From NCBI GenBank assembly GCA_963832745.1, contig CAWHVC010000002.1, positions 64,001 through 128,000 of the forward strand: DNA of 64,000 bases. The letters run 5' to 3'. Within the stretch, counting starts at the first letter, position 1. Each line of letters starts with the position of its first letter. Under the pieces are notes generated by a model, which was not told the origin of the DNA, did no database searches, and saw only the letters and a program-made list of their open reading frames with translations. Below are positions 29,460 to 54,941 of the stretch, piece by piece. Position numbers and translations under genes: made by a program. The stretch is from Candidatus Bathyarchaeota archaeon. Its GTDB lineage: Archaea; Thermoproteota; Bathyarchaeia; Bathyarchaeales; Bathycorpusculaceae.

Positions 29460-29536
29460 GCCTTCGTAGCCTAGCCCGGTGGGGCGTTACCTTGGTAAGG
29501 TAATGGTCGCGGGTCCAAATCCCGCCGAAGGCTCCA
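29460..29536 (+). tRNA. tRNA-Thr(GGT)
   Basis: gccttcg...ttacc-tt-GGT-aa-ggtaa...gcgggtccaaatcccgc-cgaaggc-t-cca. Confidence 0.93.
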
Positions 29537-29752
29537 ACTTTGCCCTGAATTTTGAGTTTGAGCTTGTTTTGCGACTTGATTATTGTTGCAATATTCCGCA
29601 GCACTGTTGCAGTTTTCCGCAACGCCGAGCAAACCAGATTCTGCCCGCATTTTTTCTGCTTTGACTTTCAAGCGGTGACGCAATGAGCGTTGATAATTCG
29701 GACTGAAACTGGATGGATTTCGAAGAAATTCTTGTTCTGTTTTTGAAAGCAT
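29471..29752 (-). CDS. int(N): N-terminal part of the split integrase
   Basis: Reads antisense through the att (WSLRRDLDPRPLPYQG), the same peptide that begins ORF 54677..54907. Confidence 0.8.
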   Translation of the reverse strand: MLSKTEQEFLRNPSSFSPNYQRSLRHRLKVKAEKMRAESGLLGVAENCNSAAEYCNNNQVAKQAQTQNSGQSWSLRRDLDPRPLPYQGNAPPG

Positions 29753-38253: not shown

Positions 38254-38923
38254 TTAAAGGCGTCTCCATTTTTACAGAGCGACTCGTTTTTTGGTGGTCC
38301 AGAAATAAACGTCATTTCCCTTGGCGAGAAACAAATAACGCTTATGATATTCTTGTAGCTGAAATTTTACTTCATCGCACCAAAGCATCTCAGGTTGCAA
38401 AGTTATATCCTGAATTTTTGTGTGCTTTCCCAACTCCGCTGTCTTTGGCCGAGGGAGCACCCGATAACATTAAAAAAATACTTAACCCTTTAGGACTGCA
38501 TTGGCGTACCAAGCTAATTCATTGTATGGGTAAGGAAATTATAGAAAATTTAATGGAAGAATTCCTGAAGAAAAAAGTTTGTTGATGTCGCTTCCAGGCG
38601 TCAGCGATTATATTTCTTCGGCAGTTATGTGCTTTGCATATAATTACAATGTACCCCTTCTTGACACAAACACTGTACTAGTCATAGGACGTTTTCTCGA
38701 GATTAAAACAAATGACGGATCACGGCGAAGTAATCAATTTAGAAGGGCTTACTTGCAATTATATGATCAAACTAAGGCTACACCTAGGGAGTTCGCCTTT
38801 GCAATAATAGATTTTGCAGCACTTGTATGTTTACCCAAGAATCCATTATGCGACAAATGTGTAGTTGGCAGTATCTGCATGTACAAATCAAATATTGATA
38901 ATAAGAAAGAGGCGCTATTATGA
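38250..38923 (+). CDS. MutY/Mig-like HhH-GPD mismatch glycosylase, frameshifted
   Basis: RHFPWRET..AYDILVAEILL, LMSLPGVSDY, LDTN, CLPKNPLCDKC.....C. Confidence 0.85.
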
Positions 38924-41900
38924 GAGAAAAACTTGTCACAGAACTCGTAAAAGAAGTGCTTGGTCCACGAACAAATGACATTAGAGAAAAAATGGTTCTC
39001 AGTCCTGTTACAGAGTTTATTACTGGTGTTCTTGCTCCACAAGGCGCTCGTGAGATTCCAACGATTGATGATGACTTAGAAATTCCTGTTGAGGATACAC
39101 AAAATTATGAAGGCGAAACCGCAGACTCTGATGTCGATGCATTGCCTGTCTTTCAGCCAGCATTATATCCTAAGAGTAAACCATCTACCATAGGTTTATC
39201 TTTTGTTATAAGACACAATGGAGAACCAAGAATTGATGTTTGTTTAACTTGGGCAAGATATAAGGGAATAATTAATAAAAACGGTAAAGTTTCGGAGTGG
39301 CGAAGGGAACCAAAATTCTTTGTCCAGTCGATTCAACTATTAAAAACGACTGTTATTTTTATTGACACATTAGGCAGAATATGTGATAAAAACAATGCTG
39401 AAATATCTCTTCATATAGTCACGAATCCTCTCAGTAACGATACACGCTTAGTGCATCTTTATTTTGTTAATGAGTTACCGAATCCGCCTTCTGAGTCAGA
39501 AATAACTTCGGAAGATTGTATTTTTCAGCCACAAATACGTGTATGTAAAGGAAATACAGAACTAACGCAAGGGATAAGGAAAAAACCGGCTGGATCAGAG
39601 GAAAAAACTTTAGATTTTCTGTACAGAAATAGACCAATCCTATCTAGGGGGCATTTATGCTCAGCAGTTTGGAGAGATATTGATCCGCAAACGCCTAAAA
39701 AATGTAAATTAACATATCCCGAGTGTGCTGGAGAAATCCCATTTTTCTGGATTGATGGACCAATTCTTACAGAATATGGCTTGTCTGAAAAACAGAAACA
39801 TTTCTCAGAATGTGATGTTAGGACAGAGTTTATTCCCTTATATGCATTGGCAAATCCTGATCTCGAATGGCCAAAGGAGTTCAAGCGCGTCCCTGAACTT
39901 AAGGCATCTGCACTTTCGGAGACATGGAATATTGGCGAATTACAGTCTGCCTTCTATCCTATAATTCAAGAACTACAACAATGGATAGACGAATTAGAAC
40001 AAAAATCAAAGGATTATCTCGAAGATGATAAAGCATTAGCTATAGATTTGATCGCCGAATGTAAAGCCGCCAATAGTCGTATAGCGGATGGTATTGCGCT
40101 ATTATGTAACAATGAAGAAGCTCGATTAGCATTCTGTTTTGCAAACAAGGCAATAGCGCTCCAAGCAACGTGGGGGAAAAAGAAAGAATTCGTTTGGCGT
40201 CCATTTCAAATAGCCTTTATTTTAATGACAATCGAGTCTATATTCAACTCAAAATCCAAGCATAGATCTACCTGTGATGTACTCTGGGTTCCTACTGGTA
40301 CAGGAAAAACAGAAGCTTATTTAGCGCTTATCGCTTTTGCTATCGCTTTAAGAAGAAGAAATGCGTTGCTTAATTCAAACCAAGAATTAACCGGCGCTGG
40401 AGTATCAGTTATTACACGTTATACTCTACGATTGCTGACAATTCAGCAATTTAGAAGAACTCTATCTATGATTACTGCCTGCGAATACCTTCGAGTACAT
40501 AATTTAGGTGCAAGATCATCGGTGGGTTGGAGACCAATTAATTCTGCTAAAAAAGGCGATTTTATCTGGGGTTCAACTCCCTTTTCATGTGGATTATGGG
40601 TAGGCGGTAGTGTTTCTCCAAACAGGTTATCAGATCTTTACATACGTAAAACAAATCAGTATATCAGTGGAGCATTAAGCATATTGAAGGGGAACAGGGG
40701 TGAGGGAGAACCAGCGCAAGTACTTACCTGCCCTGCCTGCGGCGAAATCCTTGCAGTACCAGAAATGGGCCTCTCAACTGGCAATCATCAAATCCACCTT
40801 ATAATAAAACATGAAAAAGGCGATATACGCCTAATCATTCCAGCTCTTTCGGATAAATCCTTTGGCAATGCAAAAATTGTAGGTCCGCCTAGGGTTTTTG
40901 AACTTGAATCACAATCATACTACACATTAACCCTTACCTTAGCTGTCACAGGGTCGTTCAGCACTAAGGACTTAGATGCTTTTTGGGAAAAAATTTTAAC
41001 TATAATTGAGAAAAATGGTGTTAAACTTGAACTCGCCCCTATTAAGGCGTCTAGGAATGGATATTTTGAGAAAAAAACCGAAGGCTCAAAAAAGGGGTAT
41101 GATTTTGAAATATTTTGCCCTAGTCCTTCTTGTGAGTTAAACAGGATTTGGGTAGGTGGTCTACCCGCTGGTTCAATTGCAGACAATAGTCCAAGAAATT
41201 TTGCTCCGCATCCAGATGGTCATACAATTCCTTGTTTCCCTGATGGCAATAGACTCGTAGACATTCAAATGCCGTTTAGAAAAGCCGGTAACCTTCACAT
41301 TTCAAATCGAATACCGATACCCGCGCTAACAGTGGAAGAGCAAGTTTTTAGCAAATTACCTTCTGTTGTTGTAGCTACAGTTGATAAGTTTGCCCGCCCT
41401 CCATTTAATCCTCAAGCTGCAGGATTTTTTGGAAATGTGGACGCTCATAACAGTGTTCATGGATATTTTAGGAAAACGACATGGTTATCTTCGCAGGCTA
41501 AAACTCAAAAGTTAATCTATCAACTTTCTCCGCCTAACCTCATCGTGCAAGATGAGTTACACTTGATTGAAGGTCCTTTGGGAAGTTTAGTTGGCTTGTA
41601 TGAAACGGCAATAGATTTTCTTTCCAGTGAAACAAATAAAAATCCTGTCAAATATGTTGCTTCAACAGCCACTATCCGAAGTGCTCATGATCAAACTATG
41701 GCAATTTTCCACAGGAGCCTTCAACTATTTCCTCCACGAGGATTAGATGCAAGTAAACGATTTTTTATAACTGAGAAAGATACACATGTCTTAGATGATT
41801 CTTCGGCAGGTAGATTGTACCTTGGGATTTGTGCACCCGGAAGGGGACCTTTGACTCCTCTTGTGCGTATTTATAGCAGGCTATTATTCACAGTTGGGAC

Positions 41901-42837
41901 GTATACTTCTTGCCCATCAATAGACGATTTTTGGACGTTAACAGGATACTTTAACGCCATAAGAGAGCTAGGTGGTGCAAGGGCTTTGTATAGACAAGAC
42001 ATTCCTCAAAGAATTTATGCTATAGCGGAAAATGAGCGCCAACCACCTCGTAATTTAGATGACAGCAATGTAATTGAATTGTCTAGTAGAGGTAACTCGA
42101 ATGATCTTCCCGCAATTCTTCGAATTTTAGAACAAAGTTGCTATCCAAACGCTCCTGATGCATTATTCACTACCTCTATGTTTGGAACCGGCATTGATGT
42201 ATCGCGAATTGGTTTAATGATTGTAAATGGACAGCCAAAAACTACTTCCGCATATATACAATCTACAGGACGTGTTGGTCGCAAAAATGCTGCTCTTGTA
42301 GTAACATTTCTCAGAGCTTCAAGACCACGTGACCTTAACCATTATGAATTCTTTGAAGGGTATCATAGTCAACTTCATCGGTATGTTGAGCCCACGACTG
42401 TGTATCCGTTCTCTCCCGGTGCACTTGAAAGAGCCTTAGGCCCAGTTATGGTTTTCATCCTTAGAAATATGCGAACATGTGCTATTGAATGGAGTGATTC
42501 AGAAAGCGCTCATAAAATGGATACTGCACTAACCACTTGCATAGAAGTTAAAAGATTGCCGGATATATTTGAGACTAGAGCTCAAGGTCAACCGAAACAC
42601 CGTAAGCCTATGCCGACTATTGTTCAAAAACTCGCTCAATCAAGACTTGCATTATGGCAATCAATTGCGGTTATTACAAAACAAAATCTAAAGTACAGCG
42701 AATATAATCAGGTTGAAAAACACGTCGTTTTAGGTGATTATAGACATCTTCACTCTCTCAAAGAAGTAGTGTACAAAAATGCGCCACAATCTCTGCGAGA
42801 TATTGAAGAAACAACTGGATTCCAAACAAGGGGATAA
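38920..42837 (+). CDS. drmA: DISARM helicase DrmA
   Basis: WRPFQIAF, PTGTGKTEAY, RYTLRLLTIQQF, QDELHLI.GPLGS, YIQSTGRVGR. Confidence 0.92.
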   Translation: MREKLVTELVKEVLGPRTNDIREKMVLSPVTEFITGVLAPQGAREIPTIDDDLEIPVEDTQNYEGETADSDVDALPVFQPALYPKSKPSTIGLSFVIRHNGEPRIDVCLTWARYKGIINKNGKVSEWRREPKFFVQSIQLLKTTVIFIDTLGRICDKNNAEISLHIVTNPLSNDTRLVHLYFVNELPNPPSESEITSEDCIFQPQIRVCKGNTELTQGIRKKPAGSEEKTLDFLYRNRPILSRGHLCSAVWRDIDPQTPKKCKLTYPECAGEIPFFWIDGPILTEYGLSEKQKHFSECDVRTEFIPLYALANPDLEWPKEFKRVPELKASALSETWNIGELQSAFYPIIQELQQWIDELEQKSKDYLEDDKALAIDLIAECKAANSRIADGIALLCNNEEARLAFCFANKAIALQATWGKKKEFVWRPFQIAFILMTIESIFNSKSKHRSTCDVLWVPTGTGKTEAYLALIAFAIALRRRNALLNSNQELTGAGVSVITRYTLRLLTIQQFRRTLSMITACEYLRVHNLGARSSVGWRPINSAKKGDFIWGSTPFSCGLWVGGSVSPNRLSDLYIRKTNQYISGALSILKGNRGEGEPAQVLTCPACGEILAVPEMGLSTGNHQIHLIIKHEKGDIRLIIPALSDKSFGNAKIVGPPRVFELESQSYYTLTLTLAVTGSFSTKDLDAFWEKILTIIEKNGVKLELAPIKASRNGYFEKKTEGSKKGYDFEIFCPSPSCELNRIWVGGLPAGSIADNSPRNFAPHPDGHTIPCFPDGNRLVDIQMPFRKAGNLHISNRIPIPALTVEEQVFSKLPSVVVATVDKFARPPFNPQAAGFFGNVDAHNSVHGYFRKTTWLSSQAKTQKLIYQLSPPNLIVQDELHLIEGPLGSLVGLYETAIDFLSSETNKNPVKYVASTATIRSAHDQTMAIFHRSLQLFPPRGLDASKRFFITEKDTHVLDDSSAGRLYLGICAPGRGPLTPLVRIYSRLLFTVGTYTSCPSIDDFWTLTGYFNAIRELGGARALYRQDIPQRIYAIAENERQPPRNLDDSNVIELSSRGNSNDLPAILRILEQSCYPNAPDALFTTSMFGTGIDVSRIGLMIVNGQPKTTSAYIQSTGRVGRKNAALVVTFLRASRPRDLNHYEFFEGYHSQLHRYVEPTTVYPFSPGALERALGPVMVFILRNMRTCAIEWSDSESAHKMDTALTTCIEVKRLPDIFETRAQGQPKHRKPMPTIVQKLAQSRLALWQSIAVITKQNLKYSEYNQVEKHVVLGDYRHLHSLKEVVYKNAPQSLRDIEETTGFQTRG

Positions 42838-42839
42838 AT

Positions 42840-44660
42840 ATGGTACAACAAATTCGTGGATCTCAATTCATAGTAACCTACGGGCCCGGATCAATAATTG
42901 AAGGAATAGAGGGCCCAAGGGTAATTCCTAGATCAGATATTGCACTATTTTCAAATTCACTTGTGCCGAAAAATTTTGCATTATCTGATCAAAGAATGTC
43001 AAAAGGTCTATTAGACGGCGCGAATATTTATCGACTGCCTTCTAATGCTGAACTCGGTAAACAAGATTCGATGCCTATTTACCATACAAAAGCTTTTCCA
43101 ACATGGAGACTTTGTCTTAATATTAATAACCATGCAGGACCTTTTTACATTTTACATCAAACTTTCAGCTGCCCTGTCTGTGCAGGCTTAAAGGATAATT
43201 CGCATTTTAGTAACCGTGGATCTGAACCTATACGGTTTGTTAGAGCCTGCTCGGCTGGTCACATGGATGAGGTTGATTGGGCGTATCTTGCACATGGAGG
43301 CGACAAAAGCTGTAGTAACCATAAGGTGTTTAATTGGTATGGCGGGGGAGGTTCTCTTTCCAAGGTTATAATTGAATGTCCCGAATGTAAAAGAAAATCT
43401 ATTACTCTTGGTAGAGCTTACGGGCAGGACTGGTATTGCTCGGGGCGTTATCCAGAGCGCGAACAGCTTGGAGACCGAGTTCAACCACCGTTTGACTGCA
43501 ACCGCAAAGCAAGAATTGTTCAAAGACAGGCATCTAATCTTCGAATACCTGAATTAAAAACGCTCTTTGCTATTTATCCACTTCATACAAAACTGCATGA
43601 ACATTTACAGGCTGATCCAATTTATTGGAATTTGATAAATAAAATTCCATCTGAAGCTGAATTTAGGCAATTGTTAAAAAACCTTGAGATTAAAGGTGCC
43701 GTTAAAAAGCAAGTAATCACTGAAATTCTTAACTGCCCTTGGCAAGAAATTCGGACCGCTATTGATGATATCCTTAGAGATATTCCCAGCTCATATCACG
43801 AACTTATAAAAGAGGAGTTTCAATCTTTAAATGAGGGATCTGTAAAAGGAATCCCGCCAATCAGGGGACCGACACCAAAGTCACCTGTACTCATTGAAAT
43901 TAATCCCAAGTTAGTTAATCCCTGTCATGGTCCGAATAATACCTCTTTTAGAATCACGCCTGTACTTACCCTTACAACAGTAACTGTGCAAACGGGGTAT
44001 CGCCGTGAGGTTTATACTAAGAGCTTGCCCACCCGAGGTTTAGCAGAACTTGTAGATATTTCATTCCCTGACCCCTTCGACGATAGTAAGAAATGGTATC
44101 CTGGTGTTCAATATCTTGGTGAAGGCATTTTTATAACATTAGAAAACGCAAAGACATTCATATCAAATAGCAATGCTGTAAAAGCTTGGATGAATGCCTC
44201 CGATAATAATTCATTATATCCAGATCACGTATTTAGAGACCAACTGTTTAAAGAAGAACTACACCCGGGCTTTGTTTGGTGGCATACTCTTAGCCATCTT
44301 CTCATCAGAGAAATTGCGTCAGAAGCTGGATATTCATCTTCAGCAATCAGAGAAAGAATCTATCTCGAAAACACAGACATGGCCTGCGGCGGAGGTATAC
44401 TACTTTACGCAACACAACCCGGTAGCGAAGGAACACTTGGTGGTTTAACAGCACTTGTTCCTCATTTTCAAGAAATGCTTGACAATGCATTTAACCAGCT
44501 TCAATCTTGCTCTTCTGACCCTTTATGTGTTCAGCATACTTTCAAACTCGGAGATTACAATGGTGCTGCTTGTTATGGCTGTTTGCTTTTATCGGAAACT
44601 TCATGCGCCCACCGTAACATGTGGCTAGACAGGAACATTATTTTGGAGAACTTGCCTTGA
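42840..44660 (+). CDS. drmB: DISARM DrmB (DUF1998)
   Basis: SQFIVTYGPGS, HTLSHLL, GYSSSAIRER, GTLGGL, CSSDPLC, AACYGC...ETSC. Confidence 0.92.
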   Translation: MVQQIRGSQFIVTYGPGSIIEGIEGPRVIPRSDIALFSNSLVPKNFALSDQRMSKGLLDGANIYRLPSNAELGKQDSMPIYHTKAFPTWRLCLNINNHAGPFYILHQTFSCPVCAGLKDNSHFSNRGSEPIRFVRACSAGHMDEVDWAYLAHGGDKSCSNHKVFNWYGGGGSLSKVIIECPECKRKSITLGRAYGQDWYCSGRYPEREQLGDRVQPPFDCNRKARIVQRQASNLRIPELKTLFAIYPLHTKLHEHLQADPIYWNLINKIPSEAEFRQLLKNLEIKGAVKKQVITEILNCPWQEIRTAIDDILRDIPSSYHELIKEEFQSLNEGSVKGIPPIRGPTPKSPVLIEINPKLVNPCHGPNNTSFRITPVLTLTTVTVQTGYRREVYTKSLPTRGLAELVDISFPDPFDDSKKWYPGVQYLGEGIFITLENAKTFISNSNAVKAWMNASDNNSLYPDHVFRDQLFKEELHPGFVWWHTLSHLLIREIASEAGYSSSAIRERIYLENTDMACGGGILLYATQPGSEGTLGGLTALVPHFQEMLDNAFNQLQSCSSDPLCVQHTFKLGDYNGAACYGCLLLSETSCAHRNMWLDRNIILENLP

Positions 44661-45133
44661 CAGAAGCTGAAATAATTGGAACTGGTGTTGAATTTCTTCG
44701 AACCGGAATAATGGGCATGGAACCCACCATTATATCCTTGATTACCGAAGCTACTACTGAAATTCAAATAATGGCTTACGTATTTACTGAAAGTGCGCTT
44801 CCGATACTTAATTTACTTGAAAAACAAGCTTCCAAAGGTATACTGATCACAATAATAGTTAACGATCTTAATTCGCAAAGACGAGTGATAGTATCAAAAC
44901 TAAATGAAATAACAAAATATCCAAAAGTCAAGATAGTTGATTTTGTTGATAAAAGAAAAAGGCAATTGCATGCGAAGGTTCTGGTTATCGATAGAATGAA
45001 AGCCTTAGTAGGTTCTGCTAATTTTACTTGGGGCGGTATGCTAACAAATTATGAGGTCGGGATAAAAGTGGAAGGAGAACTGGCTTGGAAGCTGGCTAAA
45101 CTTGTAGATTCATTAGCTTATCAAGATACATGA
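44621..45133 (+). CDS. drmC: DISARM PLD nuclease DrmC
   Basis: LHAKVLVID...GSANFT...NYE. Confidence 0.85.
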   Translation: MARQEHYFGELALTEAEIIGTGVEFLRTGIMGMEPTIISLITEATTEIQIMAYVFTESALPILNLLEKQASKGILITIIVNDLNSQRRVIVSKLNEITKYPKVKIVDFVDKRKRQLHAKVLVIDRMKALVGSANFTWGGMLTNYEVGIKVEGELAWKLAKLVDSLAYQDT

Positions 45134-45203: not shown

Positions 45204-45340
45204 TGCAAGGGTTTCAGAAGATTGGCGGGTAGAGAAAGAGACTGCTTGTTGTTATTTTGTATTGTTTTATATCTGATGATTAGCCAATTTACAGCAAACT
45301 TCTTTCTACTATACCTTATTTATTGAAGGCCTTTTACAAA
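45204..45340. repeat. dispersed IR-bounded repeat, copy 1
   Basis: agaaagagactgctt...ctgatgattag...ctatacc...tttattgaaggcctt, shared with 49938-50082. Confidence 0.85.
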
Positions 45341-45388
45341 CATTAATTTTTTAACTTTACAATTGAGAAAACGGTAAATAGAGAATGC

Positions 45389-45970
45389 GTGAAACAGTTA
45401 ACCATGGTTAATATATTTGGGTATGGTGAGGATGCCTTAACCTTATGGCTGCTGAAAAATCAATCGGAAGTAATTCTTCAGCGATTCAATGATAAAACTG
45501 AGCTTTCTGATTGCCTCGCGTTTTATCGGCCGAGCTTTGGCAGAAGCGGTGGTCCCGGAAATGCTGAATTCGGTGAGTTCGATGCTATCTTGGCATCCAA
45601 AGAAAAAATCTACCTGATCGAGAGCAAGTGGGACAATCATCGACAGACTAGCGGGACTGAACTCTTTTTGCGACCTGAACAAATTGAGCGCCATGAGGTA
45701 TTCAGGTGGTATCTGTGTAATTGGAATAAATCTGACCAAACTGCATTCATCGAAGGAAAGAAGATAGCTCCGTCAGACAGTCTGCTATTTAGGAATCTCC
45801 AACATATCCTGAGCCATTTGGCCCAGTGCTGCCCGAACTCTGGAAACCTTGATCACATAAAGAATGTCTTGCTTTACTTCCATGGGTCTAAGTCAAGTCC
45901 GCCCCAAAAAGTCTCAGAAGGGTTCACAATTGTGCCTATAGAATACGAGGGTAATTATGTCGACCTGTGA
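45389..45970 (+). CDS. PD-(D/E)XK nuclease-like protein
   Basis: FGEFDAIL.....YLIESKW. Confidence 0.6.
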   Translation: MKQLTMVNIFGYGEDALTLWLLKNQSEVILQRFNDKTELSDCLAFYRPSFGRSGGPGNAEFGEFDAILASKEKIYLIESKWDNHRQTSGTELFLRPEQIERHEVFRWYLCNWNKSDQTAFIEGKKIAPSDSLLFRNLQHILSHLAQCCPNSGNLDHIKNVLLYFHGSKSSPPQKVSEGFTIVPIEYEGNYVDL

Positions 45971-46047
45971 AAAGTTGAAAAATCGGTGTTTCCCAAAAGA
46001 GATAAGACTGACAAGCAGGTTAGCATTTGAGGAGGTTATGGTGACGC

Positions 46048-46632
46048 GTGTGGAAATATGGAACCTTAACTAATGAAGAACAGCTTCGAGTGAGAATGAT
46101 TGTTGATATGAGCCTTGGTTGGTCTGCGATGATGCGTGTATTTGAGAAAGACTCAAAAACAACAATAAGCAAAAAAATAATGGCCGACTTTCTTGAGAGA
46201 ATTTTCAACTGCGAATCAAAGCTCGAGTTCGACAAGCTGCATAATGAGTTTTGTGAATGGGGAACAGCGAACATTAGGCAGACAAGATCCAAAGAAAAGG
46301 CAAGTTATGGGCAGATCGCAAAGACTCTGGATGTTCTCCTGAAAGTAGCAATTTATTATTGTCATCTGCCGGATTGTCAACGAAGCAAAGAACTCTGTGG
46401 CTTGGTCAATGCTGCTGTAGATAATGCGATGATGAAAGACCTTAGAAAGCAATTCAGCATCAAATCTTCAAGTTGGCCTGATTCCTTAAAAGACGTCGGC
46501 AAGGCAGATTACTTAAGAATCCAGAAGTCGGTTAAAGAGTCCATAAGATTGAGCCATAATGATTCAATCAGCTGTCCCGAATGGGATGATATTCACTGGC
46601 AAATGGCAAACAATAAGTCAAAAGGGCAATAG
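46048..46632 (+). CDS. hypothetical alpha-helical protein (glycosylase-like motif pattern)
   Basis: SYGQIAKTLDVLLK...AAVDN. Confidence 0.5.
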   Translation: MWKYGTLTNEEQLRVRMIVDMSLGWSAMMRVFEKDSKTTISKKIMADFLERIFNCESKLEFDKLHNEFCEWGTANIRQTRSKEKASYGQIAKTLDVLLKVAIYYCHLPDCQRSKELCGLVNAAVDNAMMKDLRKQFSIKSSSWPDSLKDVGKADYLRIQKSVKESIRLSHNDSISCPEWDDIHWQMANNKSKGQ

Positions 46633-46885
46633 AATAAAGTGCTTAAAAATCGACGATAAGTGGCTCAAGCTAATATTTGCACAAAGAAAGGGATGGGAAA
46701 TCAGACGTACACCAACAAACTTCAGGGCAAAATAGCCCTCGGAAACACCAAGACCAAGAATTATGAAGGCTATGCCACAATCATTGATTGCAAGGAAATC
46801 AGCGTCAATGACCTGAAAAGGTCTGGCGATAAGCACCAAGCCTCGTCGAAACCTTTATGCGGTAAATGGGGCAATAACTGAGGGC

Positions 46886-48122
46886 ATGCCGAAAAATAAG
46901 ATTGTGAATGTGCAGGCAATCAATCAGATAAATGATAATAAAAAACTGAATGCTAAACAAAAAAAGGTCATCATTGAAAATTTTGGTAAACCTTCAGATA
47001 CACCTGATGAATTTCTCAATTCTTTCTTCCCAGCCAGCCAAGAACAATTTCTTGAAGGATTTGGATTTTTTCCGTTTGCAGTAAAAGAAGACGCCCTATG
47101 CTTCCTGATAGATCTGCAACTTGCTGAAAGGATACATTCATTGCCTGTAGAGACACGCTACCGTAATTTAGCATTATCTTATTTGCAGCAATCGAAGAAA
47201 AGAGAAAATAAGTACGCCCTTGTTGGAAGAACCATAAGTAAATTATGGACCCAATCTTCTAAAAACCCCCGTATGTTAAAAAATTCTCCCAAGTTTGAGA
47301 AAGTATTGCAGAACATTCCCGATATGAAATACCGAGATCATTTTATTCACTCCCTCTATGTTTTTCTTATGGGTCACTACATAATAAACCGGCTAACTGA
47401 AAGCCATGATTTCAATTCTACCGATGTCAATTTAACCTGGATGCTCACGTCTACTTTTCATGACATTGCTTACCCAATCGAAAGGATACATCCCTTGCTT
47501 AATTCTGTTCTTGGATATTTTATGGGAACCAAAACTAAAAACTATATTGACATAAAAGCAATTTTGCCTGAGATTTACTACGATTTTATGAGACACATTT
47601 GTTCTTTTAACCAAAATCCGATTGTAAGAGCGCATTCTATTGACATTCGATCGTACGATTTGCCCTTATACAAGAGACTCAAACTTGAGTTAATCAAAAA
47701 AAATCACGGAGTACTCAGTGCACTAATTCTGGCGAATGATTTGGCAGTTAGACAAAGATTTCTCAATTATGGAGATGGTGAGAATTTCTTCAATATGCAT
47801 TTACCCGCTTGTCATGCTATTTGTTTACATGCAATAAAGGAAGAGAGAATAAATTTTGAGACACATCCATTTGCTTTCCTTTTGGTTTTATGTGATGAAC
47901 TTCAGGATTGGGGTAGACCATCTCAGCAGGAAGCTAGAAATAATATTTGTAAAAGATATTGAAGTAAAAAGCCAAGAAATCCCAGAAATTCATTTTACTA
48001 TTTATGCATCTCCGGGGAAGCGAGAAAATCTAATAAAAGTTTTATCGACGCGCCTTGTTACCTCATCAAAAATAAAGATTTTTATTAATGAAGTTGAAGG
48101 TAGTCAAATACTTTCTCTTTAA
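46886..48122 (+). CDS. HD-domain phosphohydrolase, frameshift near 47935
   Basis: YRDHFIHS, FHDIAYP, NHG, LCDELQDWGR. Confidence 0.75.
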
Positions 48123-48492
48123 TATAGATTCTCAAGGCTCATATGAACATGTTTTCATACTTTCTTCAGTTGCCCACTCTGGCATTTGAAGCCATGATTT
48201 TTTCAAATAATATCAATTTTTTAATTTTATAGTTGCTACTAATGAGAGAGCTTTCTTTTTTTTCAATTTTTGTGCTCTTGAATCGGAAAGGTAATCCTTA
48301 AAGTAGGTGTTTACTATAAATAAAAAAAAGTTAAGTTATGGCAGCAAACATGCCCTCAAAGCGCCTTTTGTCAGAGCTTTCCCTTTTCAAGCTCAGTTAT
48401 TTCGGCTGGTTTCCGCGCCTGTCACCTGAAGGCTTGCCTGTCGTGCTTGGATAGTTTGGGGCCTTTACTTTTGCCCAAATCTTTCACTCTTG

Positions 48493-48750
48493 TTACAGTT
48501 CAAAAATGAATTGGTTGGTAGAACTATCTTTTTGAACGCTTGTCAATCTTAATTCTCGAACTAAACTAACACTATAAGCGTTCTGTAACTTTTGACCTCT
48601 GAGCACTTCACAAATCAAGGGCATTCTGCTCTTTAGTCTCATTCGATTGTGAACTTCACCTGATACTATGGTCAATTCTTTTGTTCCTGAAGCTTTCGCC
48701 GGCTTGAAATAGTTATTAAAGATGTATTGCCTTACTTCTTCGGCTGACAT
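48493..48750 (-). CDS. small hypothetical protein
   Basis: 85-aa ORF (TIVSGEVHNRMRLKSRMPLICEVL). Confidence 0.6.
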   Translation of the reverse strand: MSAEEVRQYIFNNYFKPAKASGTKELTIVSGEVHNRMRLKSRMPLICEVLRGQKLQNAYSVSLVRELRLTSVQKDSSTNQFIFEL

Positions 48751-48830
48751 TGATAACCCTTGAGCCTCTATTCCAATGTTTAAGTATAAGTAATTTGGCT
48801 TAAGGAAATCTGCGCCTTAAGCTATAAGCT

Positions 48831-49823
48831 ATGATGCCTAATGGGATAAGCATTAAAAGCGATATAGCGATATCCAGCTTAGGGGATACCGCATTGGTAA
48901 ATTTGCTTATTCCATACCGCCCAATGATTAAACATAGAGATCCGTTACTTGGAGAGTTTACATACGGTGACAGTAATGCCCGAGCTCAAAAGCTAAAAAA
49001 GGATCTTCAAAAAGGTGATTACGTTTTCTTTCACACTACAATCAGAGGGTTGAGGTATATTACTGCTTATTACGTAATTGACAGAGTTCTTGATACTGCT
49101 GTAGCTGCTTCTAATCAGGACATCGCCAGTAAATACAAAAATCCTCACATCATAGAATACCTAAAAGGAAAACGGCGTGAGGAAGCTGATGTTGTTATTT
49201 TTGGGGATCCGATTCTATCGCAAGAACTAAAAAGACCTTTGCCGTTCACCCAAGAACTTGCAATGAAACTCTCGCTTGGAATTGAGTTTAAGAAAGAGTT
49301 TACAGAGAATCAATGTATTGGCTCTTCAACACGTTCATGGAGAGTTTTAGAGAAAAGTGATGTTAAAGTACTCAAGGAAGAAATCTTGAATATTAAAGAA
49401 ACTATTTCAAAGGATACTATCATATCAACTGATGAAGTAATGGAAATCTTGGAAGCAGACCTTGAAGGGTTTATCGTCAGCAATCCGCAAATATTAGGAA
49501 CCAAATTAAAACTTGAAAAAAAACAAGAGCCCACCCAAGATGGAAGAATTGACCTAGTTTACAAAGATGAAACTGATAATTTTGTCATAGTGGAACTTAA
49601 ACTCGGAAGTATCGGGACAGCCGCTTTAAACCAATTAAGAAGATATATTCATTGGTACAAAAATCAGACGCATAAAGAGGTTAGAGGCATTATCGTTTGC
49701 AAGGATATTATGCCAGCGTTCGAAGAAAATTATGGAAAGCTAACAGATATCAAAGTACTCTGCTATGGGTGGAAACTCGCTGTCTATCCGTATACCTTTA
49801 CACTACGCCGCAGTGAAGGCTGA
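48831..49823 (+). CDS. Nmad3-like (nucleotide-modification-associated) domain plus NucS/EndoMS-type nuclease domain
   Basis: HRDP...FTYGD...GDYVFF; EADLE, GRIDL, VIVELK, ALNQLRRY. Confidence 0.7.
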   Translation: MMPNGISIKSDIAISSLGDTALVNLLIPYRPMIKHRDPLLGEFTYGDSNARAQKLKKDLQKGDYVFFHTTIRGLRYITAYYVIDRVLDTAVAASNQDIASKYKNPHIIEYLKGKRREEADVVIFGDPILSQELKRPLPFTQELAMKLSLGIEFKKEFTENQCIGSSTRSWRVLEKSDVKVLKEEILNIKETISKDTIISTDEVMEILEADLEGFIVSNPQILGTKLKLEKKQEPTQDGRIDLVYKDETDNFVIVELKLGSIGTAALNQLRRYIHWYKNQTHKEVRGIIVCKDIMPAFEENYGKLTDIKVLCYGWKLAVYPYTFTLRRSEG

Positions 49824-49937
49824 TAGTAAAGAATTGTGTGCGACCAAGCCAGCTTGTTCACTTTTTGCCAATTAGCAAGAAAGAGGAGACTGGCGAATTA
49901 TGCCTCGACACTTTTTCCGATTCCCACAATAAAAAAC

Positions 49938-50082
49938 GTTTGTAAGGCTTTCAATCGATTAACCGGTATAGAAAGAGACTGCTTATGATTATTTTATTTT
50001 GTTTTATATGTTCTGATGATTAGATAATTTACTGAAGACCTGCCTGCCTCCCTCTATACCCCCTCATTTATTGAAGGCCTTC
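49938..50082. repeat. dispersed IR-bounded repeat, copy 2 (most complete)
   Basis: Ends aaggctttcaat / attgaaggcctt; inner ggtatag / ctatacc; AT-rich core. Confidence 0.85.
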
Positions 50083-50175
50083 AACTTGTTCTATGTCAAG
50101 GGATTTTCGAGGCAGTCATTAAGCGTAAACTCTATAAGATACTTAGTATTTTACAAAATCTATGGAGTTAAAAGT

Positions 50176-50478
50176 TTGGGGCGTACTATTGGTATTGATG
50201 ATAAGACTTACAAGGAATTGGTCAGGGTTACCGCTGAGTTAATGCAGAAATCAGGCGAGCAAGTCGCGCTCAGTGATGTCCTGCGACTCTCTGTATTTCT
50301 GCTTAAAGGGTGTCTCTCAAATTACCCAGAGCTTGAAAAGCAAATCCTGAACCAAATCAGCTTTGAGGACCAGCAACCATCAACAAAAGACTTACTTTCA
50401 AAAGATATAACGCCTGAGTGGTTTGGCAAAGACTTTCTGGACTGCATCTTTGGCGTGGGAGATGAAAGAGGTGCTTAA
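50176..50478 (+). CDS. ribbon-helix-helix-like protein
   Basis: GRTIGIDDKTYKEL...LSDVLR; TTG start after ggag. Confidence 0.6.
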   Translation: MGRTIGIDDKTYKELVRVTAELMQKSGEQVALSDVLRLSVFLLKGCLSNYPELEKQILNQISFEDQQPSTKDLLSKDITPEWFGKDFLDCIFGVGDERGA

Positions 50479-50761
50479 TTTGGAGGACAAAACCAGAGCG
50501 CTTGAAAATAAATTAGACGACCTTCTATACGAGGCACGCAAACTAGAGGAAGGCGATGCAAAGAGGCTTATTGAGCAAGAGATCCGAGAAATATTCAATG
50601 TGCTGCAAAACTTTTATGCCGGCAATAATTGGCATCCTGTAAACTTCAAACAGGCTATGGAGGATCATTCGGAGCGTAAAATGACTATCAGTTGCATAGA
50701 GCTAACAATGAAACATGATATCGCCGGAAATGTTTTAGATTGGATGTCAAGAGGGAAATAA
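50462..50761 (+). CDS. hypothetical protein
   Basis: ORF coupled to its neighbours; coiled-coil N-terminus. Confidence 0.5.
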   Translation: MKEVLNLEDKTRALENKLDDLLYEARKLEEGDAKRLIEQEIREIFNVLQNFYAGNNWHPVNFKQAMEDHSERKMTISCIELTMKHDIAGNVLDWMSRGK

Positions 50762-50762
50762 T

Positions 50763-51110
50763 GTGCCAAGCGCGTTTCAGACGGCTTATCAAAGCAAGAG
50801 TAAAATGCTGGAGGATGTGCGGCTTTTATTGGGGCTAAGCAGAGAGGAGTTGGTTTCAACTTTGACGTTGTTGGAGAAGGCGGACTATGGAAGTCTGCAG
50901 TTTGCTCGGGGGCGTACAGGAATTCGCTTTCAAAGCTTTCCATCAACGCATTCCGTTTACAGTGATGTTAGCGTGGAAATAGAGTCGGCGGGAGAGGGTG
51001 TTAAGCAGACAGTGGAATATCAGATTCCCCGATCAGTGCTTAAACTATTTAGAAGAGCGAAAAAAGACAAAGTGCAAGATGGCTTGAATAGCAAAGCGGT
51101 AAAAGTCTGA
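50763..51110 (+). CDS. hypothetical protein
   Basis: 115-aa ORF in the same apparent operon. Confidence 0.45.
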   Translation: MPSAFQTAYQSKSKMLEDVRLLLGLSREELVSTLTLLEKADYGSLQFARGRTGIRFQSFPSTHSVYSDVSVEIESAGEGVKQTVEYQIPRSVLKLFRRAKKDKVQDGLNSKAVKV

Positions 51111-51189
51111 TACTGCTGGAGAGACAAATGTTACGAGTTTAATGGTTGAAAGATTATTTTGCCGCAATGTGGGCAGTTAATGATTCTTA

Positions 51190-51696
51190 CTATTCTATTA
51201 TTATTTTCCTGACAAGGCCTAAGAGTTCAAGTGTACAACCATAGTCCTGTGGTCGAGTAAACATGTTTTCTTGTGCAATTTCTTTTGTTCTCATTTCTTG
51301 ATATCTTGGAAGAAGGTGAAAATGGAAATGTTCGGTTGTGTTTGGCAATTTCTGCCCCCTTTTCCATTCTGAATTAATCTCCTTAGGTTCCCAGTGTTCG
51401 CACATAGTCATAACATATACTTTCTCGGCTTTTAGCGATTTTTTTAATTTTTTTGTTGTTTTAACTAAAATTTCCCCGAGACTTCTTGATTCTTCTTCAG
51501 TTAGCTCTGTAATGTCATTTGCATCTCTTTTTGAAATAATTAATGTATGTCCTGTAACTTTGGGATGCAAATCTAAGATTACAAAGAAATGCTCGTTTTC
51601 GCCAACCCAGCGATTCTCTCCTCCATTCCCTTCCCTGAATTTCTTCAGGTCTTTTGCCATATCACAAAATACACAAGATTCAGAATGCATTTGCAT
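51190..51696 (-). CDS. HIT-family hydrolase
   Basis: CVFC, HPKVTGHTLII, HFHFHLLPR; start at the MQMHSESC Met. Confidence 0.88.
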   Translation of the reverse strand: MQMHSESCVFCDMAKDLKKFREGNGGENRWVGENEHFFVILDLHPKVTGHTLIISKRDANDITELTEEESRSLGEILVKTTKKLKKSLKAEKVYVMTMCEHWEPKEINSEWKRGQKLPNTTEHFHFHLLPRYQEMRTKEIAQENMFTRPQDYGCTLELLGLVRKIIIE

Positions 51697-51707
51697 CAAC
51701 ACTCTTG

Positions 51708-52133
51708 TTAAAATGAAGCCCCGCAATGAGGACATTTTTCTAATGTTTCGATATAAGTGTGTTTGCAGTAAGGACAACGAACTTTAACAATTACTTCTTT
51801 TTCTTTAATGATTTCTCGGATAGAAACAATGTTAGGCGATTGTTCAGACGTATTTGTTTTCGTTATAGCCAACTTTTGCCAAAATTCAGGTTCATACTCT
51901 TTTTTAAGCAAGTCTTTCCCCTTTCCATCCATATTTGAGTTGACAAGTTCAGCACCTACAAGTTCTCCCATGCTGTAGTGAAGGAACCATTTTGCTTGGC
52001 AGTTTTGGCACAATAAATTACTTTTACGAAATCCAAAAGATTTTTTCATCGAATTTTCTTTACCACAGAAAGGACACTTTTGGAAACTATTCTTTAATCT
52101 GGATTCGAATAACTCATCCTCAAGTCTACCCAT
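51708..52133 (-). CDS. multi-zinc-ribbon protein
   Basis: CPFC..CQNC; CPYC..CPHC. Confidence 0.7.
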   Translation of the reverse strand: MGRLEDELFESRLKNSFQKCPFCGKENSMKKSFGFRKSNLLCQNCQAKWFLHYSMGELVGAELVNSNMDGKGKDLLKKEYEPEFWQKLAITKTNTSEQSPNIVSIREIIKEKEVIVKVRCPYCKHTYIETLEKCPHCGASF

Positions 52134-52493
52134 TTTCTAAATCGAGCCCACTCGCTTCTATGATAATTCTAGAATTCTAATAAGTTTTGCGAAACCGCTG
52201 ATATTGATAATTAAAACCTTTAGAACCAATTAGCTGTAAATACATTGTTTACCGATCTAAAGAGATGAGTGGTCAACTTTTCCTTGTTTAAAAATGAACG
52301 CTTGCGAGTGATGCCTCGACAGCTTTATGAGCTTGAATCGGAACATCTGCTCTTTTCAAATCCTTGCTCATGGATGACTAAAGAAGTCTTGTCTTGATTG
52401 GTGAATTTAAATTGTTAGCTAAAATGAGGTATACACGGTTGGGGCAAAGGTCTGTCGCCAGTTGCCCCCTATGGAATAAGAATGCTTCTAAAT

Positions 52494-52583
52494 TTATATT
52501 ATTTTTTTTTATGTTCTGATGATTAGCTTATTTATTTAAAACCTATTCGTTTCCTAATATACCCCCAGTTTATTGAAGGCCTT
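52494..52583. repeat. dispersed IR-bounded repeat, copy 3 (right part only)
   Basis: tatgttctgatgattag...tataccccc..tttattgaaggcctt. Confidence 0.8.
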
Positions 52584-52681
52584 TATGCCCGAAATCAACG
52601 TACATCGTGCGGGCAATGCTTTCTTGTTAACACCACAAATTACTTATCTCTAAAATGTCATAAAGAGCCGTGTGATGGCTA

Positions 52682-53293
52682 ATGGTAAATTATCCTCCAT
52701 ATGTCGACGCTTATGGAAAATTAGAAACTCTTTTCGAGAAAATAAAAGAAGCTGAGGTTCCTGTGAAAGTTACAAACGATTTCTTGCAAACAAAACTCGG
52801 CTTGAAATCCACGAGTTATAGAGCGATGATTCCGCTCATGAAGAGATTGGGTTTTATTGACGAAGCTAACGTTCCGACAGAGGAATATAGACAATATCGA
52901 GATGACAGTCAGTCGGGAGCTATTATGGCTCAGCAGATCAAAGGAGCTTACAAGGATCTTTTTGCTGCTAATGAATATGCGTTTAAATTGAATAAAGACG
53001 ATGTAACAGCAAAACTCAACACAGTTTTAGGAACTCCGGCAAACGACCCAATTACGCCTAAAGTCGCTAGCACCTTTTTAGCCCTATGCGCTTTGGCTGA
53101 CTTTGAAGGGAAAGTTTCGTCACTGCCGAAAACTCGAGAGAATATTGGAAAACCTAATGAGGGCTTTTCACAAGTTGCACTCCCAAGGCTTGGACTCTCT
53201 TACACTATTAACTTGAATCTTCCGGCTACCACTGAAATTGAAGTTTTCAACGCTATTTTCAAGGCTCTTAAGGAGAATCTGCTTAGTGAATAA
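52682..53293 (+). CDS. DUF5343-like protein
   Basis: PPY...KIKEA..P...T.DFL...LG; LSYTINLNLPAT....VFNAIFKAL. Confidence 0.75.
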   Translation: MVNYPPYVDAYGKLETLFEKIKEAEVPVKVTNDFLQTKLGLKSTSYRAMIPLMKRLGFIDEANVPTEEYRQYRDDSQSGAIMAQQIKGAYKDLFAANEYAFKLNKDDVTAKLNTVLGTPANDPITPKVASTFLALCALADFEGKVSSLPKTRENIGKPNEGFSQVALPRLGLSYTINLNLPATTEIEVFNAIFKALKENLLSE

Positions 53294-53888
53294 TGAAAGC
53301 CCTCGTGAGAAACAGCTACAAATTTTTGGCTTTAAGAATTTAGTTTTAGAAGGAGAGCTCGCCAAGTTAGAGCGGTCTGGGATTGAGATCGGTCACGTCG
53401 AGACTGTTAAAGAAAAGAATGAACTTGTTGATACTGATCTATTTGAAAGCGAAATTTTGCATAAAGCTAAAACGATGGCTGACTTCTACATCCTCTATTT
53501 TAGCTTGGAAAATAGTGTTCGAAAACTAATCACCGACGTTCTCAGCGAAAAGCATGGAGCTGATTGGTGGGAAAAACGGGTTCCTGACGGAGTAAAAACA
53601 AACGTAAAAAAATTGCAGAAAGAGGAACTGCAGACTGCCATGACGATCAGATCAGATGACAATTTGGCTTACACAAACTTTGGAGAACTTATCGACATTT
53701 TCTGTCACAATTGGGCTGATTTTACTGAAATTTTAAGAAGTCAAAAGGCTGTTCGAGATACTCTTTCCCAATTTAACAACATAAGAAATGTGATAGCGCA
53801 TAGCTGTGAACTCAGCGGCGATGAGATTCAAAGGTTCAAACTTGTGATTAAGGATTGGCAGCGAATCAGCAATAATAGCGAAGCCTAA
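53286..53888 (+). CDS. Swt1-like HEPN RNase
   Basis: LENSVR, WW...VP, YTNFGEL, RNVIAH (Rx4H). Confidence 0.85.
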   Translation: MNNESPREKQLQIFGFKNLVLEGELAKLERSGIEIGHVETVKEKNELVDTDLFESEILHKAKTMADFYILYFSLENSVRKLITDVLSEKHGADWWEKRVPDGVKTNVKKLQKEELQTAMTIRSDDNLAYTNFGELIDIFCHNWADFTEILRSQKAVRDTLSQFNNIRNVIAHSCELSGDEIQRFKLVIKDWQRISNNSEA

Positions 53889-53998: not shown

Positions 53999-54904
53999 TT
54001 AAGTCTTTTTGTCATTATCCATTTCTTCCAAGGCCTGCAAGGTCCGTTCCTTTAGCTCCTTTATTGCCGGGGAAAAGTAGTGTCTTACGAATATGCTTGG
54101 CGGGATTCTGCCACACAATAAATCGGCTTCTTGGGCTACGAGTCCGTGCCTGATCATGAAGGTGCCGTAATAGTCCCGCAGTTCGCTGGTTCGGGTTTTG
54201 ATTTTGCGTCTTTGCAATTTTTTGGTTATGGCTGCATAAGTTACCGGTTGGCTGCTCCCGATTTCGACGATAAGGCTTTCGGGTATTATGCTGATGAAGG
54301 CATTTTTTGTTCCGCGTAGAAATGTGCTTTTGTATCTGAAGTGCTCAAGGATCCCTGTTTCAGCGCTAAGGTACTCATGCAATCTTCCTTTATTTGACAG
54401 CTCGATTATCAGGTTGAAGCTTTCAATGCCCTCGCCGCATCGTAGCCCTGTCAGCTGTAAGAATTTCAACAGTAGATTCTCCTCTGGCGTCAAAATTGGC
54501 TTGACCTCGGCGAACCATTCATCCAAGTTGCTATTGGTGTTGCTGTAGATTCTAACAAAAGCGGCAAGCGCGTCTGGCTGTTCTGTTTGATTCCGTAGCT
54601 TTTCAGGGCAGCTTTGAATTGCTCGTAGCACCCGATGTATTTTGAGATTATGATCAGGCTTTTGATTGCTCCCGATCTAGTGGTTGATGGGACAGCATTG
54701 AGTTGCCCGATGTTGCCTGATTCGAGGATTTGGTAGTAGCGGTTGGCGTAGCACATTACTCTTTTTGCGGTGGTTTTTCTGTATTTGTTTTGGACGTAAT
54801 TTTTTGAATTCGGGCCAATTAAAGGCTTTAAAGCTCATTGGCTCAATGATTTGGGCGCCTTGGTAAGGTAATGGTCGCGGGTCCAAATCCCGCCGAAGGC
54901 TCCA
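53999..54904 (-). CDS. int(C): catalytic part of the SSV1-type tyrosine integrase; two frameshifts
   Basis: ORFs 54677..54907, 54490..54756 and 53999..54631; TGLRCGE, RGTK, ELRDYY, CGR...FVRHY. Confidence 0.85.
54858..54904 (+). repeat. att site: 3' 47 nt of tRNA-Thr
   Basis: ccttggtaaggtaatggtcgcgggtccaaatcccgccgaaggctcca, identical to 29490-29536. Confidence 0.95.
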
Positions 54905-54941
54905 CAATTGCCTTGGTTCTTAAAACAGTTTGATCTAAAGG

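Follow-up and report, generated by a model that had tools for sequence, protein, structure and literature searches.

Repeats of about 140 bp as candidate cassette junctions in tRNA-integrated elements of a Bathyarchaeia genus

What is the role of a short repeat that precedes one gene block after another inside an archaeal mobile element? The question is raised by a stretch of 64,000 nucleotides (the window) from Candidatus Bathyarchaeota archaeon (GenBank assembly GCA_963832745.1, contig CAWHVC010000002.1, positions 64,001 to 128,000), where three intergenic repeats of ~140 nt each (copies 1–3), all on the + strand, lie inside a 25.4-kb element integrated at a tRNA-Thr gene. This element could be delimited because it has the tRNA-Thr gene, an integrase gene and an attachment (att) repeat of 47 nt at both bounds. 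An initial annotation had suggested that the repeats were integron-like cassette sites, replication origins or miniature inverted-repeat transposable elements (MITEs). The explanation we favor, with a probability of roughly 0.55, is that they would be junction modules of a family, seen in one genus, that builds cassette arrays in tRNA-integrated elements by homology-dependent exchange.

Three repeats and their family

Word counts against shuffles, alignment and whole-genome searches all bore out that the window holds three intergenic repeats of one orientation. The word TTTATTGAAGGCCTT had 3 matches (at most 2 mismatches) against 0.47 expected, a count that 0 of 100 shuffles got to, and TCTGATGATTAG had 3 matches in the window against 0.46 expected, again a count that none of the shuffles equaled. 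The copies aligned over ~140 nt with a mean column identity of 74%. By BLAST and pattern search they were the sole copies in the whole genome (3,021,879 bases, 5 contigs), all within 7.4 kb, and nhmmer profile searches, including an unfiltered run over the element, found no fourth copy or remnant. Copy 3, previously described as partial, proved to be full length, with a degenerate left arm that begins near position 52440. Each copy stands ahead of a new gene block as had been noticed, copies 1, 2 and 3 preceding blocks A, B and C (Table 1).

We then asked where else the repeat occurs, the comparison genomes all being metagenome-assembled genomes (MAGs). An exact two-part pattern identified 13 loci in Bathyarchaeia MAGs and had 0 matches in viral contigs. 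With 2 mismatches allowed, the pattern also had 0 matches in 200 genomes of the family, a sample with few carriers of the genus and a pattern that was too strict. Of 60 other genomes in the window's genus, 27 had matches to a sequence-only covariance model of the repeat, against 0 of 40 genomes drawn from 27 other genera. Among the genomes searched, the repeat family has so far been seen in one Bathyarchaeia genus. The genomes behind five of the loci (L027, L022, L030, L033 and L029) contained 3–24 model matches each, clustered in arrays. With a profile built from the copies of the 13 loci, additional, more diverged copies came to light in these loci, without exception in the same orientation, and one 6-kb element turned out to have seven. 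After 38 more regions had been fetched, the collection comprised 144 copies in 48 loci.

The arrays have up to 8 copies, and orientation was uniform in 36 of the 37 multi-copy loci. Start-to-start spacing (n=95) had a median of 883 bp (minimum 239, maximum 8,328), with 54% of the values below 1 kb. A tRNA gene lay within 5 kb upstream of the first copy in 18 loci, co-oriented in 17 of them and including Thr-GGT, Cys-GCA and Ala-TGC, and arrays often began just past it. At the other end, 9 of the first 13 loci, and likewise most metagenome loci, have a last copy that overlaps or abuts the stop codon of an integrase gene on the opposite strand; the right-arm sequence TTTATTGAAGGCC, read backwards, encodes the GLQ* of the integrase end. 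Scanning metagenomes with the integrase added 18 more loci with the same integrase-repeat junction, as well as further arrays. As read from these sequences, the basic plan is tRNA, (repeat-cassette)n, last repeat, convergent integrase, att. Two loci (L021 and L030) carry a common insert of ~45 nt exactly between the right arm and the integrase stop codon, the same junction at which the 1.43-kb block C of the window sits. This suggests that the outer edge of the right box may be a preferred insertion point.

The consensus of 107 near-full copies reads caAAGGcCTttC.c.aAttGg..gg.ATAGaataAgtcaa.tt.aaatTtatttttT.ttTTTTATAtGTTCTGATGATaAG.Taaaacccg.aA.aCCTt..TcCctCTATa..ccccAattTttgGAAGgCCTT. The module consists of inverted end boxes (CAAAGGCCTTC...ATAG and CTATA...GAAGGCCTTTG), a T-rich center and a nearly invariant core, TTTTATAtGTTCTGATGATwAG, whose 22 nt (TTTTATAtGTTCTGATGATaAG) form the most informative part. 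Inverted outer ends and an inner GGTATAG/CTATACC pair, first described in the window's copies, are real in the family consensus (columns 10–20 against 133–143, and 34–38 against 115–119). The palindrome AAGGCCTT, together with ATAG/CTAT, underlies the end boxes. There are three AAG[GA]CCTT-like boxes, and AAGGCCTT itself showed no genome-wide enrichment (20 observed against 41 expected from composition and 23 from a Markov model).

Folding of each strand, proposed earlier as a check, gave no consistent hairpin or covariation: single-strand DNA folds had z scores from -2.84 to +1.15, with 7 of 12 folds above 0. Complementarity along the inverted diagonal was 0.65 against 0.66 for shuffled columns (104 distinct copies), with almost no compensatory change. 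RNAalifold returned a consensus structure of 0 pairs, a helix scan found no covarying helix, and in Rfam no family but tRNA reached its gathering score, with nothing relevant at E up to 10. Since the boxes are conserved as sequence and not as pairing, they look like sequences that a protein would recognize in duplex DNA, rather than a folded RNA or an attC hairpin. Following CTAT(A), columns 120–126 hold a C-run (CTATACCCCC) in some copies and a G-run (CTATGGGGGTA) in others, which looks like the inversion of a short segment, and both forms occur side by side within one array (e.g., L048). A likeness of the arms to the tRNA-Thr 3' end (GAAGGC, CCAA) was dropped, since arrays at tRNA-Cys and tRNA-Ala carry the same arms.

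A second motif, GCGAATTATGCCTCGACA, does occur exactly twice where it had been reported, upstream of copies 2 and 3. Its significance is weak, as 2 of 100 shuffles likewise reached 2 or more matches with 3 mismatches allowed. The repeats of the other 47 loci, which total 600 kb, have no such motif beside them, and it therefore does not belong to the repeat family.

Some loci have a more complex layout. L052, at the end of G259:C15, and L053, at the start of G259:C14, each show three repeats with near-identical scores, two of the three E-values being equal, and are probably one array assembled twice. In L056 and L039, partial att copies of tRNA-Cys and tRNA-Ala lie between groups of repeats, and we therefore take several elements, every one with an array of its own, to have entered the same tRNA in tandem. 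In the metagenome loci L082, L086 and L094, a repeat lies 80–90 nt upstream of att and the 5' end of the integrase gene. We draw no conclusion on an episomal form from them, since a tandem-integration junction looks identical.

Mosaic copies and cassette turnover

If the repeats join cassettes, their two halves may have different histories. We sorted pairs of near-full copies by the homology of their 70-nt flanks; these flank-conditioned analyses replaced a first histogram of BLAST end points, which was confounded by repeat-to-repeat matches. Pairs with only the downstream flank in common (n=70) had raised identity only in columns 86–140 (e.g., 0.70–0.95 against a baseline of 0.39–0.81), and pairs with only the upstream flank in common (n=15) only in columns 6–60 (0.64–0.87 against 0.38–0.61). 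The pairs that had both flanks in common (n=4) were essentially identical. Because the left half of a repeat tracks the upstream cassette and the right half the downstream cassette, the repeats look like recombination joints, and the mosaic pattern is as expected if cassettes were exchanged by crossovers inside repeats. Maximum-likelihood change-points ranged over columns 26–122 in integrase-proximal pairs, 64–145 in other downstream-sharing pairs and 0–99 in upstream-sharing pairs, with clusters just past the core and at the outer boxes. This spread along the repeat favors homology-dependent exchange over a fixed site-specific cut.

The cassettes themselves turn over. Orthologous tRNA-Thr loci carry 3–7 repeats and completely different cassette content, the opposite of the invariant gene content that the initial annotation had named as grounds for giving up its reading. 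Its other such ground, copies scattered over the genome with target-site duplications, was not observed either. Blocks A–C have no nucleotide homolog in the other 47 loci, and relatives of the block C protein were found at 35–37% only, in 2 of 119 genomes of the genus. Other cassettes are common to arrays of different genomes, loci and tRNA sites, in different order. These recurring cassettes include a DUF5752 gene, Alba, a stand-alone AsnC ligand-domain gene, an HTH_45 winged-helix gene and a 171-nt non-coding cassette. The AsnC-domain gene is always reversed and ends 8 nt from the right arm in L034, L036, L039, L041 and L043, and 12 nt from it in L037. On two contigs of one genome, a 946-nt segment with the HTH_45 winged-helix gene is 99.9% identical (L042:5715-6660 and L048:9186-10131). 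Its upstream boundary lies inside a repeat, just past the core, and in one array its downstream boundary lies ~25 nt before the next repeat. This near-identity points to a very recent transfer between arrays, or a duplication. The earlier idea of capture specific to defense genes did not hold, as cassettes elsewhere encode Alba, winged-helix, AsnC-domain and DUF proteins.

Explanations of the repeat arrays

In the explanation we favor, modules of ~140 bp of double-stranded DNA, which alternate head-to-tail with short gene blocks over the stretch that begins just past the target tRNA and closes at the 3' end of an integrase gene of the SSV (Sulfolobus spindle-shaped virus) type, would serve as portable homology for looping out, inserting and swapping blocks. 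A crossover between two repeats would yield a circle with one hybrid repeat and one cassette, and the reverse reaction would insert it. On insertion of a circle at a resident repeat, the upstream hybrid would keep the right part of the incoming repeat and the downstream hybrid its left part. The exchange would depend on homology and not take place at a fixed nucleotide, with host recombination or the integrase itself as its agent. The integrase is a possible agent because Int-pTN3, of the SSV family, recombines any homologous segments of at least 104 bp, according to the abstract of PMC5495485; such an activity would fit the 140-bp modules. The T-rich, TATA-like center and the boxes might also give transcription signals, letting a block be expressed wherever it lands. 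In the window, this platform would carry defense-type cargo beside an integrase that is now broken. A more far-reaching version we hold only tentatively: an integron analogue made from unrelated parts, in which the SSV-type integrase anchors the element at a tRNA, the ~140-bp modules perhaps bear promoters, and the integrase catalyzes homology-dependent excision, reshuffling and insertion of circles, stockpiling defense genes and small chromatin or regulator genes.

Several observations weigh against the exchange of cassettes at repeats as we picture it. Orientation is mixed in one multi-copy locus (L055) and in the metagenome locus L088. In 30 of the 48 loci the fetched stretch shows no tRNA gene in the 5 kb that precede the first copy, many loci are without a close integrase homolog, and integrase homologs (31–100% identity) occur in 59 of 119 genomes of the genus, some of which are without repeats. 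Genes point in both orientations relative to the repeats, and in the second of the two arrays that share the 946-nt segment, its downstream boundary lies outside a repeat. Between block C and the integrase no repeat is present, even by unfiltered nhmmer, and the block replaces the integrase's last five codons; it therefore did not arrive by simple repeat-by-repeat insertion. The scattered change-points define no specific crossover site, and a conserved intergenic repeat of any kind would look alike after ordinary homologous recombination or gene conversion. Mis-joins of MAGs at repeats could inflate the apparent shuffling, although copies have only ~22 near-identical nt in common. In archaeal promoters, a TATA box with a transcription factor B recognition element (BRE) upstream of it lies ~25 nt ahead of the start site. 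The promoter part of our explanation stays a conjecture, given the two gene orientations and the absence, on the + side, of a host-type BRE (AAAGC/AACC), which is only loosely present on the - side.

The rival that survives best, which we consider possible though doubtful, does without any role in mobility. The repeat would be a purely regulatory intergenic module, a compact and possibly bidirectional promoter/operator with a T-rich terminator, whose AAGGCCTT-type boxes bind a dimeric protein; it would have spread by gene duplication, with the mosaic as a by-product of gene conversion. A conserved TATA-like TTTTATAT between the inverted boxes fits this, as do the three AAG[GA]CCTT-like boxes and the conservation of the boxes as sequence rather than pairing, which suits protein binding on duplex DNA. 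Pfam-supported genes on the same strand (Alba, DUF5752, SnoaL and PLD) begin 27–130 nt past repeats, the joined-form integrase has its start codon ~45 nt past where the first repeat ends on the left, and many cassettes encode small DNA-binding proteins. Read on its - strand, the core (CAGAAC-ATATAAAA) is more like host tRNA promoters, with their AAAGC-TTTAAA pattern, than it is on the + strand. However, several Pfam-supported genes point their 3' ends at the repeat (AsnC-domain genes, six loci). Raw open reading frames (ORFs) within 200 nt of 71 copies, with 39 same-strand starts against 51 opposite-strand ends, were too noisy to show a polarity, and gene orientation was afterwards judged from Pfam-supported genes only. 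The regulatory account also leaves unexplained why the arrays are co-oriented and often sit in tRNA-integrated elements, why the last repeat overlaps the stop codon of a convergent integrase gene, and why the same 140-bp module accompanies unrelated genes of all kinds in one genus. A promoter or operator role is nonetheless plausible and compatible with cassette exchange, and a two-way promoter would serve both gene orientations.

It is unlikely that the repeats are true site-specific cassette sites, equivalents of attC or dif at which a tyrosine recombinase (the SSV-type integrase or host Xer) binds the boxes or core and cuts at a defined position. Their layout is like that of integron arrays such as the Vibrio cholerae repeats (VCR), with an integrase followed by same-orientation, imperfectly symmetric sites of ~140 bp and cassettes of 0.25–1 kb. 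A shared crossover region would have to vary little, and the 22-nt core hardly varies; several breakpoints fall within a narrow stretch past it (columns 95–116), and many breaks fall exactly at the outer boxes (columns 0 and 145). But the inferred breakpoints together cover the whole repeat, the proven target of the integrase is the tRNA att site, repeats of this one family also make up the arrays at tRNA-Cys and tRNA-Ala, and many arrays have no integrase in reach. Known attC sites have outer core sites R'' and R' with the consensus RYYYAAC ... GTTRRRY. The family ends in caAAGGcCTttC and GAAGgCCTT instead, and an AAC|GTT in copy 2 is not conserved. Nor was the conservation of structure over sequence that marks attC found, given the folding and covariation results above, nor an IntI-type integrase (PF00589 plus the IntI-specific domain) with a fixed crossover (Pfam PF16795 is the only match, and change-points spread over columns 26–145 and 0–99). 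Arrays of co-oriented sites with short cassettes and a tyrosine recombinase gene alongside, as in integrons, were found. The integron-like reading of the initial annotation thus stands for layout and outcome (same-orientation sites, short cassettes, an integrase, differing content and mosaic copies) and falls for identity with attC and IntI.

We regard as very improbable a role as origin of replication or initiator-binding site in accreted replicons, or as a gene for a small non-coding RNA. Inverted boxes, each a dyad followed by a G-run, around an AT-rich stretch have origin-like architecture, but the likeness to archaeal origins ends with this general layout. Host boxes beside orc1/cdc6 are the classic TCCAGTGGAAA...GGGGTGTG, unlike the repeat arms; Cdc6_C occurs at only 2 places in the genome, neither in the window; and the 6-kb element with seven copies, like arrays of up to 8, has no initiator gene nearby. 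The host origin itself (G000:C3:484300-484900, upstream of orc1/cdc6) has at least 3 classic boxes (TCCAGTAGAAGCGTAGGGGTGTG, an inverted partner and TCCAGTGGAAATTTTGGGGTGTG) around AT-rich DNA. For an RNA, CTGATGA resembles by eye a C box or hammerhead core, whereas a putative CUGA D box is not conserved and the structure, covariation and Rfam searches described above were blank. C/D-box, K-turn, hammerhead and leader-peptide readings of CTGATGA..., all made by eye, were rejected on the same grounds, their partner elements not being conserved. Least probable of all is a non-autonomous MITE-like element with 30-nt terminal inverted repeats, inserted repeatedly into intergenic DNA of mobile islands: size (~140 bp), AT-rich interior, imperfect terminal inverted repeats and multiple copies per genome would fit, but there is no target-site duplication (the longest flanking direct repeats of 107 copies equal those of 2,120 shuffled-partner control pairs), copies are uniform in orientation and clustered in arrays instead of dispersed through the genome, as the three here are, and the halves of one copy have different histories.

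How the repeat arrays relate to other cassette platforms is best seen by comparison. In Acinetobacter plasmids, modules bounded by short dif/pdif sites occur in different contexts, pdif being 28-bp Xer sites in alternating orientation. In tycheposons, cargo that includes defense genes piles up beside tRNA genes in arrays separated by partial tRNA (att) repeats. The arrays described here likewise have gene modules bounded by short putative recombination sites, with cargo, defense genes included, beside tRNA genes; unlike both systems, they have 140-bp co-oriented modules and no att copies between cassettes.

The textbook example of a device that stockpiles and reshuffles single genes is the integron. 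As in the integrons of Ghaly et al. 2022 (PMC9668308), a tyrosine-recombinase gene lies beside co-oriented, imperfectly symmetric repeats of ~60–140 bp with cassettes of mostly 1–2 genes, strains differ in the cassettes that they carry, and some arrays have no integrase close by (like the clusters of attC sites lacking integrases, CALIN). Unlike integrons, the integrase is SSV-type (PF16795) with att inside its ORF and a tRNA as target, and it is the 3' end of the integrase gene that the array adjoins. Unlike attC, the repeats are conserved in sequence with an invariant asymmetric core, and each is half-linked to each neighbor. In place of the G|TT crossover of integrons, crossovers appear spread along the repeat, and there are multi-gene blocks and both gene orientations. 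Archaeal integrons known so far are of the bacterial IntI/attC type only (PMC9668308). Closer in their integrases are SSV-family and pTN3-type elements, where, going by the abstracts of PMC7253208 and PMC5495485, integration likewise splits the integrase gene at a tRNA target and hybrid integrase genes form at tandem junctions. Those elements, plasmids or viruses found in hyperthermophilic Euryarchaea, carry genes for replication or structure; the two abstracts report no repeat-punctuated arrays. Unlike pTN3-type elements, those here can be as small as ~6 kb, with integrase and cassettes only (L048).

The repeat family is best described as integron-like in layout and outcome without being an integron, a variant of repeat-bounded cassette platforms for which the recombination mechanism and the promoter role are proposals. 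We found no prior description of the repeat arrays in the literature searched (subscription-only papers lay outside its scope), the word 'cassette' had 0 matches in the review PMC8371274, and the system is apparently new to the literature. An abundant archaeal lineage of sediment and peat here reaches an integron-type outcome with different components. If the modules are confirmed as recombination joints, they would represent an independent invention of cassette capture, provide a natural substrate for the reported, odd homology-type activity of an SSV-family integrase, and explain how defense systems (DISARM, PDC-M34) and small DNA-binding genes move within the genus. The repeat model is also a cheap marker for accessory-gene arrays in Bathyarchaeia MAGs.

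The tRNA-Thr element in the window

The features of the element are collected in Table 1. Homologs of its integrase start ...SLRRDLDPRPLPYQ, exactly what the tRNA-Thr 3' end encodes when its reverse complement is translated, in frame, and the att site therefore lies inside the integrase ORF. This is a hallmark of SSV-type 'suicidal' integrases (PMC7253208, abstract). The N-terminal 40 codons missing from the integrase body sit at the opposite end of the element, and a homologous N-terminus is present in L049 (by translation). With att inside the ORF and identical to part of a tRNA gene, and with N- and C-terminal parts at opposite ends, the element has the marks of an SSV-type self-splitting integrase. 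Pfam matches were to PF16795 only, and no PDB sequence matched. The window's integrase shows two frameshifts (tblastn and three-frame translation) and its last 5 codons are replaced (...EEMDNDKKT* against ...EEMGVKGLQ* in homologs), by which it is predicted to be now broken. Block C reaches the integrase 3' end; elsewhere the gap between last repeat and integrase stop codon is 0 to 52 nt. A second integrase of the same family (G000:C3:70174-70956, 41% identity, a 344-aa open frame) lies elsewhere without nearby repeats.

Table 1. Coordinates of the tRNA-Thr element, its repeats and its gene blocks in the window
Feature	Position	Strand	Evidence or remark
tRNA-Thr(GGT), integration target	29460..29536	+	ARAGORN, Rfam tRNA
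Left att, 3' 47 nt of tRNA-Thr	29490-29536		Direct-repeat search
Integrase N-terminal fragment at attL	29490..29650	-	ATG 29650; MRAESGLLGVAENCN...SWSLRRDLDPRPLPYQ through att
Complete DISARM core	38920-45133		Just upstream of copy 1; DrmA 1305 aa (PADLOC 1533 bits), DrmB 606 aa, DrmC (PLD) 170 aa
Repeat copy 1	45204..45340	+	71 nt past DrmC stop codon; nhmmer E=2e-22 to 3.5e-25
Core of copy 1, TTTTATA-TCTGATGATTAG	45264-45283	+	
Block A, four ORFs	45389..49823	+	Last ORF (48831-49823) with NucS_C and Nmad3 domains
Second motif GCGAATTATGCCTCGACA	49893..49910	+	Partner 52304-52321; found in this window only
Repeat copy 2	49938..50083	+	Best kept copy; both inverted arms intact; DNA fold z -1.8, -2.0
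Block B	50071..52133	mixed	Three small + strand ORFs without Pfam family, then HIT and zinc-ribbon genes
HIT gene (block B)	51190-51777	-	
Zinc-ribbon gene (block B)	51708-52133	-	
Repeat copy 3	52440..52585	+	Full length, left arm degenerate; E=2e-27
Block C, DUF5343 and Swt1-like HEPN	52682..53888	+	PADLOC candidate defense pair PDC-M34 A/B
Integrase body, SSV-type	54017..54904	-	Pfam PF16795 'archaeal phage integrase'; directly inside right att
Right att, repeat of tRNA-Thr 3' end	54858..54915	+	58 nt, 93% identity; right end of element

By Pfam and PADLOC, the defense cargo of the 25.4-kb element comprises an NsnA/GmrSD-like gene, DISARM DrmA/B/C, the NucS/Nmad3 protein and PDC-M34. Of the gene labels given earlier to the blocks, Pfam supported NucS_C/Nmad3, HIT and DUF5343 with HEPN, and gave no match, even at E up to 1, for 'HD' and 'RHH'. 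The DNA just ahead of DISARM has a short fragment of a C-5 methylase (37936-38214) and, over two ORFs (38250-38585 and 38579-38923), a split Vsr/EndoIII-like nicking endonuclease, which together look like a decayed methylase/repair module. Further upstream (34494-36109), the NsnA/GmrSD_N-like gene (334 aa) stands beside a 203-aa ORF with a weak SIR2 match in PADLOC, and the two may be another defense pair of the island.

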